Assembly: GCA_964610305.1 (NCBI GenBank)
Contig: CAZSVL010000001.1
Span: 6,083 to 70,082, forward strand
From: an uncultured Gammaproteobacteria bacterium
Lineage (GTDB): Bacteria > Patescibacteriota > Patescibacteriia > Magasanikbacterales > JBBTXJ01
DNA: 64,000 nucleotides
Direction of reading: 5' to 3'
In this document: positions 671-51,820 of the stretch, in pieces
How the letters are laid out: each line of letters begins with the position of its first letter
Numbering within the stretch: the stretch's first letter is position 1
Made by a program: the position numbers and the translations under genes
Notes under the pieces: generated by a model
Databases searched by the model: none
What the model was told of the DNA's origin: nothing
The model's input: the letters and a program-made list of their open reading frames with translations, nothing else

Positions 671-834
671 CCATAGCGCGGGCGTCATCCCGGAATTTGC
701 GAAGCAAATGTCCGGGATCTCACAGAAAAACGTATGCGGCGCAACGCTGCTGTTAGATTCTGAATCAAGTTCAGAATGACAAGAAGCGAAGCTTTGTAAA
801 AAAATATCACGGCCGTAAGGCCGTGGAGCTTCAT
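671..834. repeat. composite intergenic repeat, copy A (about 165 bp): type-1 hairpin, variable hairpin, conserved tail hairpin CACGGCCGTAAGGCCGTG; ends at the murJ stop codon
   Basis: Core GTCATCCCGGAATTTGCGAAGCAAATGTCCGGGATCTC at 683-720; the tail ...GACAAGAAGCGAAGC...ATCACGGCCGTAAGGCCGTGGAGCTTCATTTAAG is near-identical to 17341-17510. Confidence 0.7.
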
Positions 835-4571: not shown

Positions 4572-5158
4572 GAAATTTTAAAAAGTGGGGGGCATACGGC
4601 GCTCTTTTTTGTTTTTTTGGATTTGTGACAGTGGTGGGTACTATTCGTACCACCTATGTAGATAAAATGTATGCTGAGCATCCAGATTTAGACGCTCATA
4701 TTATGATTTTAGGTGGCAAAGTTGAGGCTGATGGTAGCGCTTCTGATTGGTTGGCAAACAGAGTAAGGGCAGGTGCCGTTCTAGCACAAAAGCAAGGCAA
4801 GCCGGTTTGGCTCAGTGGGGACAGTGGTTGGAAACGAAAAAATGAGATTGTGGCTATGGCAGAAGTGCTTGAGTCTTTCCACCTAGATTATATTGTTGAT
4901 GGAAGAGTTGGAAGAACCATAGATTCTTGCTGGAGAGCAAAGCACGTGCATGACATTGAAAGTTTAATTATCGTGACACAAAAATTCCATATGGCTAGAG
5001 CACTTTATCTTTGCAATAAACTGGGTATAGATACATACGGGGTTGTAGCAGAAAACGGAGAGAGCGGTTTGGCTACTACTTATCTAAGAGATTATGCGGC
5101 AAGCGTCTTAGCCTGGAGAGATATACAATTTGGTTATACGCCAGTGTACACGCAATAG
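4568..5158 (+). CDS. DUF218 (YdcF/SanA/ElyC) family protein
   Basis: N-terminal TM, then LSGDSGWKRKNEIVAMAEVL...DGRVGRTIDSCWRAKHV, typical of the DUF218 fold; ATGA overlap with the upstream gene. Confidence 0.65.
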   Translation: MRNFKKWGAYGALFCFFGFVTVVGTIRTTYVDKMYAEHPDLDAHIMILGGKVEADGSASDWLANRVRAGAVLAQKQGKPVWLSGDSGWKRKNEIVAMAEVLESFHLDYIVDGRVGRTIDSCWRAKHVHDIESLIIVTQKFHMARALYLCNKLGIDTYGVVAENGESGLATTYLRDYAASVLAWRDIQFGYTPVYTQ

Positions 5159-5174
5159 TGTTTTCAATATTTAT

Positions 5175-5207
5175 GTCATCCCGGGCTTGACCCGGGATCT
5201 CAAGAAC
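5175..5207 (+). repeat. type-2 hairpin repeat GTCATCCCGGGCTTGACCCGGGATCTCAAGAAC, immediately upstream of the GIY-YIG start codon
   Basis: Same GTCATCCCGG...CCGGGATCTC ends as the other copies; its reverse complement occurs at 17422-17454. Confidence 0.7.
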
Positions 5208-5504
5208 ATGAAACAATATTACGTCTACATCTTAACCAACCATACTAAAACGGTACTATACGTAGGTGTAACAAGTGACTTGATAAAAAGAGTGTGGCAA
5301 CATCGGCAAATGGTCGTAGAGGGATTTAGTAGAGAATACAAATTAGGGACCCTTGTTTACTTTGAAGTGCATCAAAATGTAAAAGAGGCCATCAAAAGAG
5401 AGAAGAGAATCAAAAAGTGGAAGCGTAAGTGGAAGGAGGAATTAATTGCGAGAGATAATCAAAATTGGGAGGATCTCTATCAGAGATTGCTGGATAGGCG
5501 TTGA
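5208..5504 (+). CDS. GIY-YIG nuclease-domain protein (about 98 aa)
   Basis: KQYYVYILTNHTKTVLYVGVTSDLIKRVWQHRQ matches the GIY-x(9-11)-YIG...R...H/E pattern; the ORF-track start at 5130 would read through the repeat hairpin, so the ATG at 5208 is preferred. Confidence 0.8.
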   Translation: MKQYYVYILTNHTKTVLYVGVTSDLIKRVWQHRQMVVEGFSREYKLGTLVYFEVHQNVKEAIKREKRIKKWKRKWKEELIARDNQNWEDLYQRLLDRR

Positions 5505-5516
5505 TTCTTGAGATCC

Positions 5517-5560
5517 CGGATATTTTGCTCTGCAAAATTCCGGGATGACAGTATTGGTGT
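5517..5560 (-). repeat. type-1 hairpin repeat in inverted orientation, 12 nt after the GIY-YIG stop
   Basis: CTTGAGATCCCGGATATTTTGCTCTGCAAAATTCCGGGATGACAG is the reverse complement of the core at 683-720, 17355-17394 and 41545-41584. Confidence 0.7.
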
Positions 5561-6567
5561 CTTATATGACGCAAAAATAAGAGCCCCAAAAAAGGAGCTG
5601 GGACTATCCGAATATCGCGTAAATGAGCAGAAAAGCTGCAAAGAAAATACCGTGCGAGGCTAGCCAGAATTTTACTGATTCGCGTAGCAGGCTTGATTCT
5701 GGGTGATCAGTCAAAGTAGATCAGTGACAAGGTGGTTTTCACGGTTTCCTCCTGAAAAAGAACTCCTAAGATGATATCACCGTGAATTGCTCGTGTCAAG
5801 TATTGACGCGTATTTTGGTAGTTGCTACATTATGGTCATAGGAGGTTGCTCATTGCGCAATATCAGGAACGTAGCAATAATTAAGAAACCAAACGGCAGC
5901 GCCTACGCTCTAAGATGCGGGCAAGGTGGTGTAAGAAAGGAGCGGGTACCACCAGAGCATACGGTAGTCTTTGAACTTCTTGCATTGCGGGGAGAAGACA
6001 TTGTTGCCTTTGAAAATAGAGCGGGCAGTATTGCTCGTCGGGAATTTGGACTTGGCTACATAGACGGCTTGGATATCTAAGATTTTAAATGGCTGGCTTG
6101 CCAGTCTTTTTTGATACAAAAAAACCGGCAAAAAAGCTCGATATTAATTAACTTCCTGCTCATGCCGGAAAAAAAGGGTGGACCACACGACCATCCACAT
6201 AAATGAGAGATCTTCTCTTGGGTCCACCTAAAGTCAAATTATAGGAGAAATTATGACAAGCGTTAGGTCTCCTTTCATGAAAAACCATGTTCTACTGCGC
6301 TTGCCAAAGATGGGGTGAGGGTTGATCACTTGCAACGTCTTATAAAAGAACCCTGTCATGCCCTCAGTAATAGGCTAGCATTTGTTGTGCTGCTTGTCAA
6401 CCCGTGTGGATAACCAGCCTTGATCATCCCTAATAAAGCGTGTAGAATGGGTTGTAGTGGGGAAAAGTGGGGAAATCTAAAGATGACCCCGAGTTTTAAT
6501 ATAAGTTGGGCAGTGTGCCCGGGTGTTGCGCTAAAACTTTAAAACGGCTGTCAAGTCGCTGCATAAA

Positions 6568-6999
6568 ATGTTTTTAGGCGAGTATCACCACAACTTAGAT
6601 GACAAGGGGCGGCTGGCTATACCAGCTAAATTTCGCGTTGCATTGAGCCGTGGAGCGGTGGTTACACGAGGCCTTGACAATTGTTTATTTATTCTTCCAA
6701 AAAAAGAGCTAGAGCGTCTTGCTATAAAGCTTGCAGAGCTTCCATTAAGCCAGTCAAAAACACGTGCGTATGCGCGTCACATGTTGGCCGGCGCCATGGA
6801 AAGCAAACCAGACAAGCAAGGACGCATTGTTATTCCGGACTATCTCCAAAACTTTGCCAAGATTAAAAAATCTGTAGTTGTTGCTGGGCTGTATAACCGC
6901 ATAGAGGTGTGGGATAAGACGGCGTGGGAGCGCTACGCGGCAAAGAATGAAAAAGAGATAGACGCCATTGCAGAAGCCCTTGGAGAATTTGGCATATGA
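6568..6999 (+). CDS. mraZ: transcriptional regulator MraZ
   Basis: MFLGEYHHNLDDKGRLAIPAKFR... duplicated MraZ/SpoVT-AbrB fold; 143 aa; TGA stop overlaps the rsmH ATG. Confidence 0.9.
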   Translation: MFLGEYHHNLDDKGRLAIPAKFRVALSRGAVVTRGLDNCLFILPKKELERLAIKLAELPLSQSKTRAYARHMLAGAMESKPDKQGRIVIPDYLQNFAKIKKSVVVAGLYNRIEVWDKTAWERYAAKNEKEIDAIAEALGEFGI

Positions 7000-17295: not shown

Positions 17296-17340
17296 TACCC
17301 CAGTTTCTGGGGTTTTTTTATTCATCGCGAGAAAAACCCG

Positions 17341-17503
17341 GCCGCGGCGCGGGCGTCATCCCGGAATTTTGCGCAGCAAAATATCCGGGATCTCAAGAAC
17401 GCTTTGCCGCAGGTGTTTTTACTTGAGATCCCGGGTCAAGCCCGGGATGACAAGATGCGAAGCATTTTAGAAAAAGATACCACGGCCGTGAGGCCGTGGA
17501 GTT
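17341..17503. repeat. composite intergenic repeat, copy B (about 165 bp), twin of 671-834; ends at the dinB stop codon
   Basis: Type-1 hairpin 17355-17394, type-2 hairpin (rev) 17422-17454, tail ...GACAAGATGCGAAGC...ACCACGGCCGTGAGGCCGTGGAGTTTCATTTAAG. Confidence 0.7.
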
Positions 17504-18820
17504 TCATTTAAGAGGTCTCGCTAGAAGAGGAATTCCAATACGCTGCCTCAACGTTTCTCCTTTAAAGAGGGTTTTTTTACGCAGGCCAGACTCATGGCGT
17601 TCGTGCGTGCCGTCTGGTCCTTTTTGCACTTTTTGTGCGGCGCCCATAAAGACGGTGTGTTTGCCGTATTTTTTGTCTAAATCATCCACGGCGTCAAAAA
17701 TCCTATCTAATTTATGGGTGCGATTAGTGTCAGAGAATAAATCTAGCTGCACCGTTTTCTCATCTTTTAGTTTGTGAAGAGCTACGCTGGTGGATCTATA
17801 AAAGGTGTCTTTTTTAAAGAGTTTGTCATACGCTGCTCGTGCAGCGGCTATAACATCTACGGGGTTATTGCTGGCATGGGCCAATGTAACAGATGCGCCG
17901 CGTCTACTAAAGTTTTTTTTGTGGAGCGCAAAGGTAACCTTTGGGCATACTAAATTCATGCGCCTGGCTTTTATACACGCGTTTTCTATATTTCTACATA
18001 GATGCGCAAAGACCAGCTCTTTATCTGAGCTGCTAGGAGAGAAGGTTTTTTTCTTACGAATAGATTGGCGTGGCTTGGGTGGCGCATCGGTAACGGAGTA
18101 TATCAGCCGTCCGTTAAGCTCATGCCAAATTTCCTGGTGAGGTTTAGTAAGATAGCGCATGACCCAGTCTTCATCCTTTTTTGCGAGAGTTAGTGCGTCG
18201 CGAATGCCCATAATACGCAGATATTCATGTGTACGCGGACCAATGCCCCATATATCTTTTGGATGTGTGTCTTTAAGGAATTCATGAATTTTGCGGCCGG
18301 GAATTTGCGTGATGCCAAAAGGTTTTTTCCACTTGCTGGCCACTTTTGAAAGTACTTTTGTGGGAGCCAAACCTAAGGAAAACGTCATGCCCAGCTCTTT
18401 GTAAAGTGTATCCTGCAGCGTTTTAAGAATTTTAGGAAAGCTCATGCGTAGTGGTCTGCGCATGCCGGTGAGGTCCGCAAAGCATTCATCTATGCTGTAT
18501 TCTTCAACGGTGTGTGTGTACCGGCGGACAATATCAAAAAAACGCTGAGAAAAGAGGCTGTAACTTTCATAATCTGAAGGAACAAAAATAACATCGGGGC
18601 AGAGCTTTTTAATAGTGTGATATGGCATGGCGCGCGTAACGCCCGCGGCTTTTGCCTCATAAGAAATAGAGGCTGCAATACCGCGTTCTTTTCCGGTAAT
18701 AACGGGCTTACCCTTCCACGCAGGATTAAGCGCTTGCTCGCAAGAAGCAAAAAAAGCATCGCCATCTATATGCAAAATGGCGCGTGGATAAGAGCTAAGC
18801 ATGAGTGGTTGGGTAGGCAT
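17504..18820 (-). CDS. dinB: Y-family DNA polymerase IV (DinB)
   Basis: ILHIDGDAFFASCEQALNP catalytic N-terminus, SIDECFADLTG, little-finger region; start taken at the MPTQPL ATG. Confidence 0.85.
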   Translation of the reverse strand: MPTQPLMLSSYPRAILHIDGDAFFASCEQALNPAWKGKPVITGKERGIAASISYEAKAAGVTRAMPYHTIKKLCPDVIFVPSDYESYSLFSQRFFDIVRRYTHTVEEYSIDECFADLTGMRRPLRMSFPKILKTLQDTLYKELGMTFSLGLAPTKVLSKVASKWKKPFGITQIPGRKIHEFLKDTHPKDIWGIGPRTHEYLRIMGIRDALTLAKKDEDWVMRYLTKPHQEIWHELNGRLIYSVTDAPPKPRQSIRKKKTFSPSSSDKELVFAHLCRNIENACIKARRMNLVCPKVTFALHKKNFSRRGASVTLAHASNNPVDVIAAARAAYDKLFKKDTFYRSTSVALHKLKDEKTVQLDLFSDTNRTHKLDRIFDAVDDLDKKYGKHTVFMGAAQKVQKGPDGTHERHESGLRKKTLFKGETLRQRIGIPLLARPLK

Positions 18821-18915
18821 GTTTTCCACTTGACAGATGGTCGAAGGTGAAGTATATTGGATACACAAATGGCTTCGGCCTCCGAGACCTCGCACACCCG
18901 TGCGAGGATCGTTTT

Positions 18916-33099: not shown

Positions 33100-33118
33100 A
33101 TCAAAACACCAAGCTTTT

Positions 33119-33162
33119 CTTGAGATCCCGGATATTTTGCTTCACAAAATTCCGGGAGACAG
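33119..33162 (-). repeat. solo type-1 hairpin repeat (variant ...CCGGGAGACAG)
   Basis: CTTGAGATCCCGGATATTTTGCTTCACAAAATTCCGGGAGACAG; followed by a terminator-like hairpin at 33176-33203. Confidence 0.65.
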
Positions 33163-35642: not shown

Positions 35643-35650
35643 ACTATTCT

Positions 35651-35727
35651 GTGAGATCCCGGATATTTTGCTCCGCAAAATTCCGGGATGACGTGGCGGA
35701 TGATTCCCAAAATTTCGGGATGACAAG
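35651..35727 (-). repeat. type-1 hairpin repeat plus an adjacent partial second copy
   Basis: GTGAGATCCCGGATATTTTGCTCCGCAAAATTCCGGGATGAC, then GATTCCCAAAATTTCGGGATGACAAG. Confidence 0.65.
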
Positions 35728-41544: not shown

Positions 41545-41584
41545 GTCATCCCGGAATTTTGCGAAGCAAAATATCCGGGATCTC
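41545..41584 (+). repeat. solo type-1 hairpin repeat
   Basis: GTCATCCCGGAATTTTGCGAAGCAAAATATCCGGGATCTC, essentially identical to 17355-17394. Confidence 0.7.
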
Positions 41585-41634
41585 CCAGAAAATAAAAAAT
41601 CAATTTTATCTTCAAAAAGAAAGGAGGTGCAAAA

Positions 41635-51142: not shown

Positions 51143-51171
51143 TTGACAGAAATACGCAGCCTTGATATAGT
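51143..51171 (+). promoter_or_regulatory. rplJ promoter TTGACA-N17-TATAGT
   Basis: TTGACA at 51143-48, TATAGT at 51166-71. Confidence 0.5.
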
Positions 51172-51177
51172 ATGCGC

Positions 51178-51295
51178 ACCACAGACTGCAGCAGCCTTTT
51201 AGGCTTAATATGCTGCATAGGTAAAAATACTCGCCAAAGTGGCGAGACGGTCGATTTTTTGCCAATCTGTGTATTTCCACAGATTATTTTAATTT
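51178..51295 (+). ncRNA. ribosomal protein L10 (rplJ) leader, candidate autoregulatory structure
   Basis: About 118-nt 5' UTR with hairpins CGCCAAAGTGGCG and CAATCTGTGTATTTCCACAGATTATT. Confidence 0.35.
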
Positions 51296-51820
51296 ATGGC
51301 TAAAACAAAAGAGCAAAAAGAGCAGATTGTAGCACGTCTCAAAAGTGATTTTGAGCGGGCCAAGTCTGTTGTATTTGCGAATTTTCAAGGACTTAGTGTA
51401 GCTGAGGCTGAAGAGCTTCGCGGTAAGGCCAGAGAGTCTGGCGTTGGCGTATATGTTGCCAAAAAGACACTGCTTGAGCGCGCTGCTAAAGAGGCAGAGC
51501 TAGGAGATGTTTCTCCACGAGCTTTTGCTGGTGGAGTGGCAACCTTCTTTGGTTTTGAGGATGAAGTTGCTCCTGCCCGAATCGTTCATGAATTCTCTAA
51601 GGATCATGAAGTGGTTGAAATTGTGGGCGGAACCATGGAAGGTTCAGCTATTGCCGTAGAGCAGATTAAGGCACTTGCGTTGCTGCCAGGCAAGCAGGAA
51701 TTACTTGGCAAGCTTGTGGGCACACTTAACGCGCCGGTATCTGGCTTTGCCAATGTGCTCGCCGGAAACGTGCGTGGTTTGGTAACGGTTCTTGATGGAA
51801 TTCGCGATCAAAAAGCTTAA
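51296..51820 (+). CDS. rplJ: 50S ribosomal protein L10
   Basis: [42 protein letters not shown]. Confidence 0.9.

Follow-up and report, generated by a model that had tools for sequence, protein, structure and literature searches.

Positions 5175-5549 of the 64,000-nucleotide stretch of DNA analysed here (contig CAZSVL010000001.1; below, the window) hold a 375-nt block in which a small gene for a GIY-YIG nuclease, ssn, is bracketed by inverted hairpin repeats, with zero spacer between the open reading frame (ORF) and either hairpin end. The ssn ORF (5208-5504, plus strand) starts with ATG at 5208, runs for 98 codons and ends with TGA at 5502-5504. Directly 5' of the ATG lies the left repeat, a short-form hairpin at 5175-5207 (plus strand) with the sequence GTCATCCCGGGCTTGACCCGGGATCTCAAGAAC, which consists of GTC, an 8-bp stem (ATCCCGGG/CCCGGGAT), a loop, and the tail CTCAAGAAC. 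The right repeat, a long-form hairpin at 5505-5549 (minus strand) that is inverted relative to the left one, begins at the first base after the TGA with TTCTTGAGATCCCGGATATTTTGCTCTGCAAAATTCCGGGATGAC, and its stem starts at 5513. An earlier interpretation of this DNA made from its letters alone (the sequence-only reading) had the coordinates and strings of the bracketed 98-aa ORF essentially right, but put the right hairpin 12 nt after the stop codon. Both ends share GTC, the basal stem ATCCCGG/CCGGGAT, and the tail CTCAAGAA. They differ towards the loop: the short form adds one base pair and the loop CTTGA, the long form an additional 7-bp AT-rich apical stem. DNA folding against shuffled controls gave -9.4 kcal/mol for the short form (z=-4.0) and -14 kcal/mol for the long form (z=-6.3). 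The ssn ORF has a G+C content of 38%, compared to 44.8% for the window, in which it is present as a single copy.

The product on record for ssn (P0001, 124 aa) starts with a TTG at 5130, overlaps the end of the upstream DUF218 gene, and has a reading frame that crosses the left hairpin (VIPGLTRDLKN). This recorded start is probably wrong, because all homologues start at the position of the ATG at 5208. The left hairpin is also the place where short-read contigs from SRR8146441 (L081 and L087) break: one ends at ~5202 and the next begins at 5177, showing these repeats fragmenting assemblies.

The GIY-YIG assignment was borne out by a profile search, in which the 98-aa protein matched Pfam PF01541 with E=4e-15 over 77 of the 78 profile positions (residues 3-77); the Pfam scan found no second domain, and the protein had no match in NCBIfam or PADLOC. 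Among 5.8 billion proteins searched, 1,928 were relatives, almost all of them 90-110 aa in length, and the best non-self match had only 60% identity. Named relatives came from Rhodospirillaceae, Micavibrio, Sulfurimonadaceae, Ignavibacteriaceae, Desulfobacterales, and CPR2. In the homologue alignment, Y7, Y18, G20, R28, H32, and E65 are invariant, plus a KxWxRxWK block. The sequence-only reading had proposed a previously undescribed family, but the family has already been published: Chenal et al. (Nat Commun 2025; PMC11893778) described the Ssn family of ~94-aa single-domain GIY-YIG enzymes (CDD cd10448), and the later literature that we found merely cites their paper. They reported that about half of the Neisseria dRS3 repeats belong to a longer oriented element, the NTS (CGTCATTCCCGCGMAVGCGGGAATCYRG), and that NTS-like 'Ssn-related motifs' (SRMs) flank ssnA homologues in many phyla, with at least one SRM at 71% of the homologues and SRMs on both sides at 42%; the NTS/SRM core is GTCAT-palindrome-C. 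SsnA binds the hairpin solely as single-stranded DNA (ssDNA) and cuts a few nucleotides upstream of it, is inactive on duplex DNA, RNA, and the opposite strand, and loses cleavage with Y6A, Y17A, or E64A (PMC11893778). Binding depended most on the palindrome and on the C that directly follows it, cleavage on the GTC that directly precedes it, and three other homologues act likewise on their own repeats, for a total of four tested in vitro (PMC11893778).

Membership of the Ssn family was defined by a blastp match to Neisseria SsnA with E<1e-10 and at least 75% query coverage (PMC11893778). In a pairwise comparison with the N. gonorrhoeae orthologue of SsnA, the window protein was 46% identical over 89 aa (91% of the query, E=6e-32), and a tblastn search of a 7.3-Gb database matched it to the N. 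gonorrhoeae gene with E=1e-10. This orthologue (L091, NZ_CP119140.1, 1498-1779) was used rather than N. meningitidis CAX49033.1, and we took it to be orthologous to SsnA from its length (94 aa), the residues Y6/Y17/E64, and nine exact NTS that surround it within 3.3 kb. NZ_CP119140.1 and NZ_CP119142.1 are 2.17-Mb N. gonorrhoeae chromosomes that are filed as plasmids in PLSDB. The residues essential for cleavage by SsnA (Y6, Y17, and E64) align with Y7, Y18, and E65 of the window protein, which are invariant in a 20-sequence and an 8-sequence alignment. With 98 aa and only the GIY-YIG domain, the protein has the size and build of the family (~94 aa, <150 aa, no extra domain). By these sequence measures, the window protein is a member of the Ssn family. 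A sequence search of the PDB found no solved Ssn structure and only marginal matches to UPF0213-type proteins, 1ZG2 and 1YWL (E=0.023 and 0.05).

The same bracket is found at homologous loci. We compared 80 such loci, the best 80 of 600 or more matches, taken from GTDB species representatives and spanning Patescibacteria, Pseudomonadota (alpha, beta, and gamma), Desulfobacterota, other 'Deltaproteobacteria', Nitrospirota, Planctomycetota, Omnitrophota, Campylobacterota, and others. At the great majority, GTCAT(T/C)CC-stem-loop-stem-GGAATCCAG lies 10-20 nt 5' of the ATG and an inverted copy, CTGGATTCC-...-GGAATGAC, a few nucleotides past the stop codon, with stem letters that vary by lineage (CCCGC, CCGGC, CCTGC, CCCAGC, CTGAA). 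At 52 of the 80 loci, the published SRM pattern is present, correctly oriented, no more than 150 nt from the gene, and at 16 it is present on both sides. Its density is ~2.8 per kb near the gene and 0.03 per kb at distances >500 nt, a ~90-fold difference. A structure-aware scan for a GTC-tagged hairpin found one upstream at 61 loci, downstream at 61, and on both sides at 49, with a median distance of 17 nt to the ATG on the upstream side and of 10 nt from the stop codon on the downstream side. The structure-only hairpin detector had a background of 1.7 per kb and was used only for orientation-specific counts beside genes. For covariation, 91 candidates were chosen by position and the GTC tag only, with no complementarity filter. 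In this set, the 8-bp stem was paired in 72.9% of cells compared to 60.4% in shuffles, and the stem covariation score was 0.329 compared to 0.167 in shuffled sets (0 of 500 shuffles scored as high, and slid partners reached at most 0.19). One stem position, for example, was C-G in 32 candidates, G-C in 17, A-U in 7, and U-A in 5. Bracket and hairpin are conserved. Chance co-occurrence of gene and hairpins was considered and rejected, and the view taken in the sequence-only reading that the two belong together holds across many phyla.

Besides the two that bound the cassette, eight other SRM copies are present in the window, giving ten in total, all intergenic and about one per 6 kb. With at most one mismatch, GTCATCCCGG occurs at 8 sites compared to 1.4 expected (none of 100 shuffles reached 8), and with at most two mismatches CCGGGATCTCAAG occurs at 8 sites compared to 0.9 expected. 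GTC, the palindrome, and the C are present in all ten copies, one of which lacks the A after GTC. Four copies were absent from the sequence-only reading: a solo, slightly degenerate long form in a convergent intergenic region (33117-33161, minus strand; GTC-TCCCGG, with the A missing), a solo long form between a DUF2914 gene and greA (35647-35692, minus strand), a third short form, GTCATCCCGAAATTTTGGGAATC, adjacent to it (35697-35724, minus strand), and a solo long form downstream of recQ (41545-41590, plus strand). The long-form copies are 95-98% alike. Rfam searches of the whole window at gathering thresholds and of 5100-6700 at E<=1 found nothing at the hairpins and only a spurious snoRNA match.

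The remaining four copies make up two ORF-less SRM pairs. The pair at 684-779 consists of a long form (684-727, plus strand) and a short form with the stem TCTGAA/TTCAGA (749-779, minus strand), and the pair at 17355-17452 of a long form (17355-17401, plus strand) and a short form (17420-17452, minus strand). The existence of both pairs had been noticed at 683-780 and 17355-17454, with the two hairpin types described as being in the same order as in the cassette; on the plus strand the order is the opposite, long and then short. Read on the minus strand, 17355-17452 is a cassette whose ends are 31/31 and 43/45 identical to those at 5175-5549. Its 31-nt short-form end (17422-17452) is 100% identical to the cassette's left end, the 45 nt at 17355-17399 are 96% complementary to 5505-5549, and 22 nt replace the cassette's AAC and ORF. 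The ORF-less derivative proposed in the sequence-only reading is in this sense present, since 17355-17452 carries the cassette's ends. The identity of AAGAAC at 17395-17400 to the 6 nt before the ssn ATG is also real, but the hexamer is just the conserved 3' tail of the repeat. The pair at 684-779 is more diverged than that at 17355-17452. A simple internal deletion of this cassette as the origin of an ORF-less pair was rejected; the only trace of it is a weak one, GCGTT before the right end in both.

Each ORF-less pair sits in a composite repeat of ~200 nt, whose two copies (639-840 and 17310-17513) are 80-88% identical and have the order T-run terminator, SRM (+), spacer, SRM (-), GC-rich hairpin CACGGCCGTnAGGCCGTGG, and TTCATTTAAGA. 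The final bases of each copy form the stop codon of a minus-strand gene, murJ (835-2466) in the first and a dinB/IMS polymerase gene (17504-18895) in the second, two genes unrelated to each other. When 749-779 is aligned with 17422-17452, the right-hand hairpin of the composite has paired changes on both arms (CCCGGG/CCCGGG compared to TCTGAA/TTCAGA), which is further evidence that the hairpin matters.

The 80 loci, each extended by 1.5 kb of flank, were compared all against all by blastn, which gave 117 locus pairs with nucleotide homology over the gene and both ends defined. In 112 of the 117, this homology is confined to the GTCAT...ATGAC unit, and in 17 it covers the whole unit, to within 10 nt of either end; the pairs that depart from this are syntenic congeners and one duplicate within a genome. 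In that duplicate, two copies in one genome (L026 and L038) are 99.8% identical and the identity continues 47 and 91 nt past the unit. Two Desulfobacterota contigs share 90% identity over 359 nt, with ends at 0 and +4 of the unit, and a Desulfobacterota and a Nitrospirota contig share 81% over 360 nt, with ends at -4 and +1. Cassette identity between a Desulfobacterota and a Bipolaricaulota contig is 79%. Within Oxalobacteraceae, the cassette separates sucC from sucD in Collimonas, Undibacterium, and another metagenome-assembled genome (MAG) of the family, while in Glaciimonas the same cassette lineage (80% nucleotide identity, ends at -1/+3) lies between ftsK and a cupin gene. Because homology ends at the unit and the same lineage occupies different sites within Oxalobacteraceae, the SRM-ssn-SRM block behaves as a discrete transferable unit.

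Insertion sequences (ISs) and miniature inverted-repeat transposable elements (MITEs) are recognised by terminal inverted repeats that bound the unit at unrelated sites, and such repeats are present here. They are also recognised by a target-site duplication or other insertion signature, and no direct repeat flanks any of the ~30 cassettes that we inspected; the sole regularity in their flanks is that a pyrimidine precedes GTCAT and a purine follows ATGAC. Mobility of the cassette is plausible. A tRNA scan found none, indicating that the element is not tRNA-targeted. At one locus (L031), the DNA just outside the cassette (~560-590 and ~910-925) is itself an inverted repeat, with CCCTTAAC on the left and GTTAAGGG on the right; either this cassette inserted into a palindrome, perhaps, or the ends of this copy may reach further out. 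Two loci, L054 (9998-10126) and L037 (9547-9636), carry ssn pseudogenes with in-frame stops (42 and 29 codons), at which the flanking hairpin or downstream coding similarity persists. These interrupted copies indicate that the gene decays in some lineages.

The upstream neighbour of ssn in the window is a DUF218/YdcF-type gene whose best named relatives are from Candidatus Magasanikbacteria and other Patescibacteria, at 46-49% identity. This places the window in an uncultured Patescibacteria lineage with no close sequenced relatives. A metagenome scan for loci with the DUF218 neighbour found only relatives with 33-38% identity. The order beta-CASP nuclease, DUF218, mraZ, rsmH is kept in three Magasanikbacteria-type relatives, and in the 9-11 kb read around the locus ssn is absent from between DUF218 and mraZ in all three. 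The position of ssn is not conserved, and these relatives are too distant to date the presence/absence event. In each of the three, the stop codon of DUF218 is immediately followed by an SRM-like hairpin, which argues that the repeat family is lineage-wide and that ssn at this site is specific to the genome of the window. The SRM-like hairpins in these ssn-less loci, with the stems GCTGAA and TCTGAGG, include those at 4870-4950 and 5671-5764 in L088 and at 5660-5690 and 6045-6090 in L089; L088 also contains a tandem run of GTCATTCCGGG half-sites.

Taken together, the locus is very probably an Ssn/SRM module, a Patescibacteria member of the published system with variant hairpins. We infer the cleavage chemistry and specificity of this enzyme, both hairpin forms as its substrates, and its cellular role from the tested family members, and the resulting model is as follows. 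An SRM would fold into a hairpin when the DNA is single-stranded, as in incoming transforming or conjugative DNA or in replication or repair intermediates. By analogy with the four tested enzymes, Ssn would bind this hairpin in a sequence- and orientation-specific manner, and its putative active site (Y7, Y18, and E65 with Mg2+) would hydrolyse the strand a few nucleotides 5' of GTC. This puts the predicted cuts a little beyond the cassette, at ~5170 (top strand) and ~5553 (bottom strand). Given the homology with the tested members, neither duplex DNA nor RNA would be a substrate. The ~375-bp SRM-ssn-SRM block would be a horizontally transferable unit of mobile origin, and the ORF-less pair and solo SRMs would be derivatives or dispersed sites of it.

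Several points weigh against the assignment to the Ssn/SRM system. The strict published string, HGTCWYN(0-2)YYVSBRHN(0-5)WNVSBRGN(0-2)RNCYNB, has no match in the window: the short form fails at the last position only (A in GATCTCA), and the long form exceeds the 5-nt loop limit. Recognition of these variant hairpins by this Ssn is therefore an assumption. The sequence upstream of the ssn ATG has no promoter-like site and no obvious Shine-Dalgarno sequence. The architecture frequencies from the 80 loci describe close relatives, and many of the comparison loci are MAG contigs, for which the taxonomic assignment can be wrong. When the loop limit was raised to 30 and the last position dropped, the string matched 6 sites in the window, among them the left hairpin, compared to 1.2 in shuffles; as a control, the same code recovered the nine exact NTS in the Neisseria locus. 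The long form is plausibly still an Ssn substrate, because the Neisseria enzyme tolerates an extra stem at the loop position (PMC11893778). With repeats at 0 nt on each side of the gene, where 500 bp would have been allowed, and eight more copies elsewhere in the window, the repeats agree with the published description in substance, if not to the letter.

Similar to the published Ssn/SRM system, the window has a ~95-aa single-domain GIY-YIG protein with the same catalytic residues as its Neisseria orthologue, oriented GTC-palindrome-C hairpins that flank the gene, more copies of these dispersed in intergenic DNA, and an IS-like repeat-gene-repeat layout. By contrast, its stem is CCCGG and its tail GATCTCAAGAA, where Neisseria has CCCGCG and GAATCYRG; short and long-stem forms occur side by side, both missed by the published string; and the host is an uncultured, Magasanikbacteria-like member of the Patescibacteria. 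A small gene between inverted hairpin repeats that are also dispersed through intergenic DNA is likewise the arrangement of repetitive extragenic palindromes (REPs) and bacterial interspersed mosaic elements with their REP-associated tyrosine transposases (RAYTs), which also act on ssDNA hairpins and typically have one gene and many repeats per genome. RAYTs, however, are Y1 HUH enzymes of the IS200/IS605 type, unrelated in fold and chemistry and without sequence similarity. The short unit at 17355-17452, with ends identical to those of the gene-bearing element, resembles bacterial MITEs such as the Correia elements of Neisseria, although classical MITEs derive from ISs with DDE transposases and make target-site duplications, of which the inspected Ssn cassettes have none. 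The closest solved structures belong to UPF0213/YhbQ-type proteins, which are also ~100 aa with a single GIY-YIG domain but lack the EGF..Y and KxWxRxWK motifs of the Ssn group and have the marginal similarity noted above. We know of no association of UPF0213/YhbQ proteins with hairpin repeats.

That the block remains an active mobile element today and works by a new type of mechanism, with the ORF-less pairs and solo SRMs as non-autonomous progeny, strikes us as rather doubtful. Under such a scheme Ssn would nick just outside each hairpin end in ssDNA, and host replication or repair would complete excision, copying, or homing into other hairpin sites; end-to-end homology of the unit across phyla and a miniature with identical ends are the traces expected of an active element. 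A related proposal, that this is an active autonomous IS-like transposon with Ssn as its transposase and the ORF-less pairs and solos as MITE- or REP-like copies mobilised in trans, overlaps with our reading of an Ssn/SRM module of mobile origin, from which it differs only in claiming present-day Ssn-driven transposition. We regard it as possible yet unlikely. The compact 375-nt bracket resembling terminal inverted repeats, the miniature's near-identical ends, cassette homology in unrelated genomes that stops at the outer hairpin ends, the different sites occupied within Oxalobacteraceae, the absence of ssn from syntenic loci, and the low G+C content of the ORF all fit a transposon, and the similarity of the long-form copies suggests recent spread or homogenisation. 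Chenal et al. raise the same idea, in that they liken NTS-ssnA-NTS to an insertion sequence, draw the comparison with REP/RAYT, and offer domestication as a hypothesis (PMC11893778). On the other side stand the single ssn copy in 64 kb and the lack of target-site duplications. The retained sucC-sucD position in Collimonas, Undibacterium, and the Oxalobacteraceae MAG indicates that long-term stability is possible, and ssn pseudogenes persist with intact hairpins (L054 and L037). GIY-YIG enzymes hydrolyse DNA with no covalent intermediate, whereas HUH/Y1 enzymes pass through a covalent 5'-phosphotyrosine intermediate that allows them to rejoin DNA; for Ssn, the rejoining of strands would therefore be left to host repair. 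Neither excision nor insertion has been observed anywhere, and what has been demonstrated for the family is confined to ssDNA cleavage in vitro and lowered transformation and does not include transposition (PMC11893778). The selfish, MITE-spawning element of the sequence-only reading was a reasonable proposal that unit-limited homology and the miniature copy support in part, with transposition itself as a hypothesis.

Equally tentative is the idea of a domesticated host system, in which Ssn lowers the integration of SRM-bearing ssDNA and so modulates transformation or recombination around SRM-flanked genes, and the hairpins are left over from a time when the block was mobile. Natural transformation is known from some Patescibacteria. 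The ssn gene of the window is single-copy and intact with all invariant residues, SRMs are spread through its intergenic regions, and the ssn-less relatives keep SRMs at the same site, as expected of a lineage-wide repeat family. The proposal also invokes a role shown in vivo, the single one so demonstrated for any Ssn enzyme: SsnA lowers transformation by NTS-bearing DNA in N. meningitidis, the one species for which this was shown, with roles elsewhere unknown (PMC11893778). Within the 64 kb, however, SRMs do not visibly cluster around any particular class of gene, and PADLOC gave no match. It is very improbable that the repeats are ordinary REP-like terminator or mRNA-stabilising hairpins that lie beside a GIY-YIG gene by coincidence. 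All copies are intergenic and mostly just downstream of genes, and two are in composite units with terminator-like hairpins, but this view is already contradicted by the bracket at homologues in many phyla and its ~90-fold local enrichment. In addition, the hairpins have no U/T tract, their non-palindromic oriented flanks (GTC...C) are conserved, and tested family members bind the hairpin as ssDNA, not RNA (PMC11893778). Hardly credible, finally, is a nuclease acting on duplex DNA, whether a free-standing homing endonuclease of the I-TevI/Seg type or a housekeeping enzyme of the UvrC/Slx1 type, the latter an identity that, by the sequence-only reading's own account, would have counted against it. 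The protein shares the GIY-YIG catalytic domain, and with I-TevI and the T4 Seg enzymes also a selfish-element flavour; these, however, have extra DNA-binding domains, cut duplex DNA, and reside in introns or phages, whereas the window protein is a bare catalytic domain of 98 aa with no DNA-binding, UvrC C-terminal, or Slx1 zinc-finger domain. It has no NCBIfam match, a tblastn search of 50,697 phage records found no match to it, its homology to SsnA is full-length, and its position is not conserved.

Read as an Ssn/SRM module, the locus extends the system to a Patescibacteria genome. The published SRM string misses real variants, namely those with a different 3' tail and the long-stem forms, and published counts of SRM-bearing genomes may accordingly be underestimates. 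A tiny GIY-YIG gene between inverted hairpins is a strong and general signal that could be recognised here from raw letters. The hairpin-limited homology, the varied sites, and the miniature bear on the hypothesis of Chenal et al. that NTS-ssnA-NTS is or was mobile, and new pairs of Ssn and hairpin are of practical interest as site-specific ssDNA cutters.

Several minor features lie outside the cassette. The ~1 kb between it and mraZ (5550-6567) holds no convincing ORF. Its minus strand has a hydrophobic ORF of 36 aa (5604-5714) between a promoter-like site (5799-5771, 11/12 matches) and a terminator-like one (5605-5582). A small RNA on the minus strand of 5575-5765 was rejected, as the RNA fold is no better than in shuffles (z=+0.56). 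A direct repeat, GTGGGG-N4-GTGGGG, at 6458-6473, ~95 nt upstream of mraZ, looks like a MraZ operator, and a similar block (35 nt, 77-80%) is found upstream of mraZ in the three syntenic relatives (L088-L090). Further along the window, an ordinary ribosomal protein L10 leader (Rfam RF00557, 51 bits compared to a gathering threshold of 44) lies upstream of rplJ at 51161-51300.

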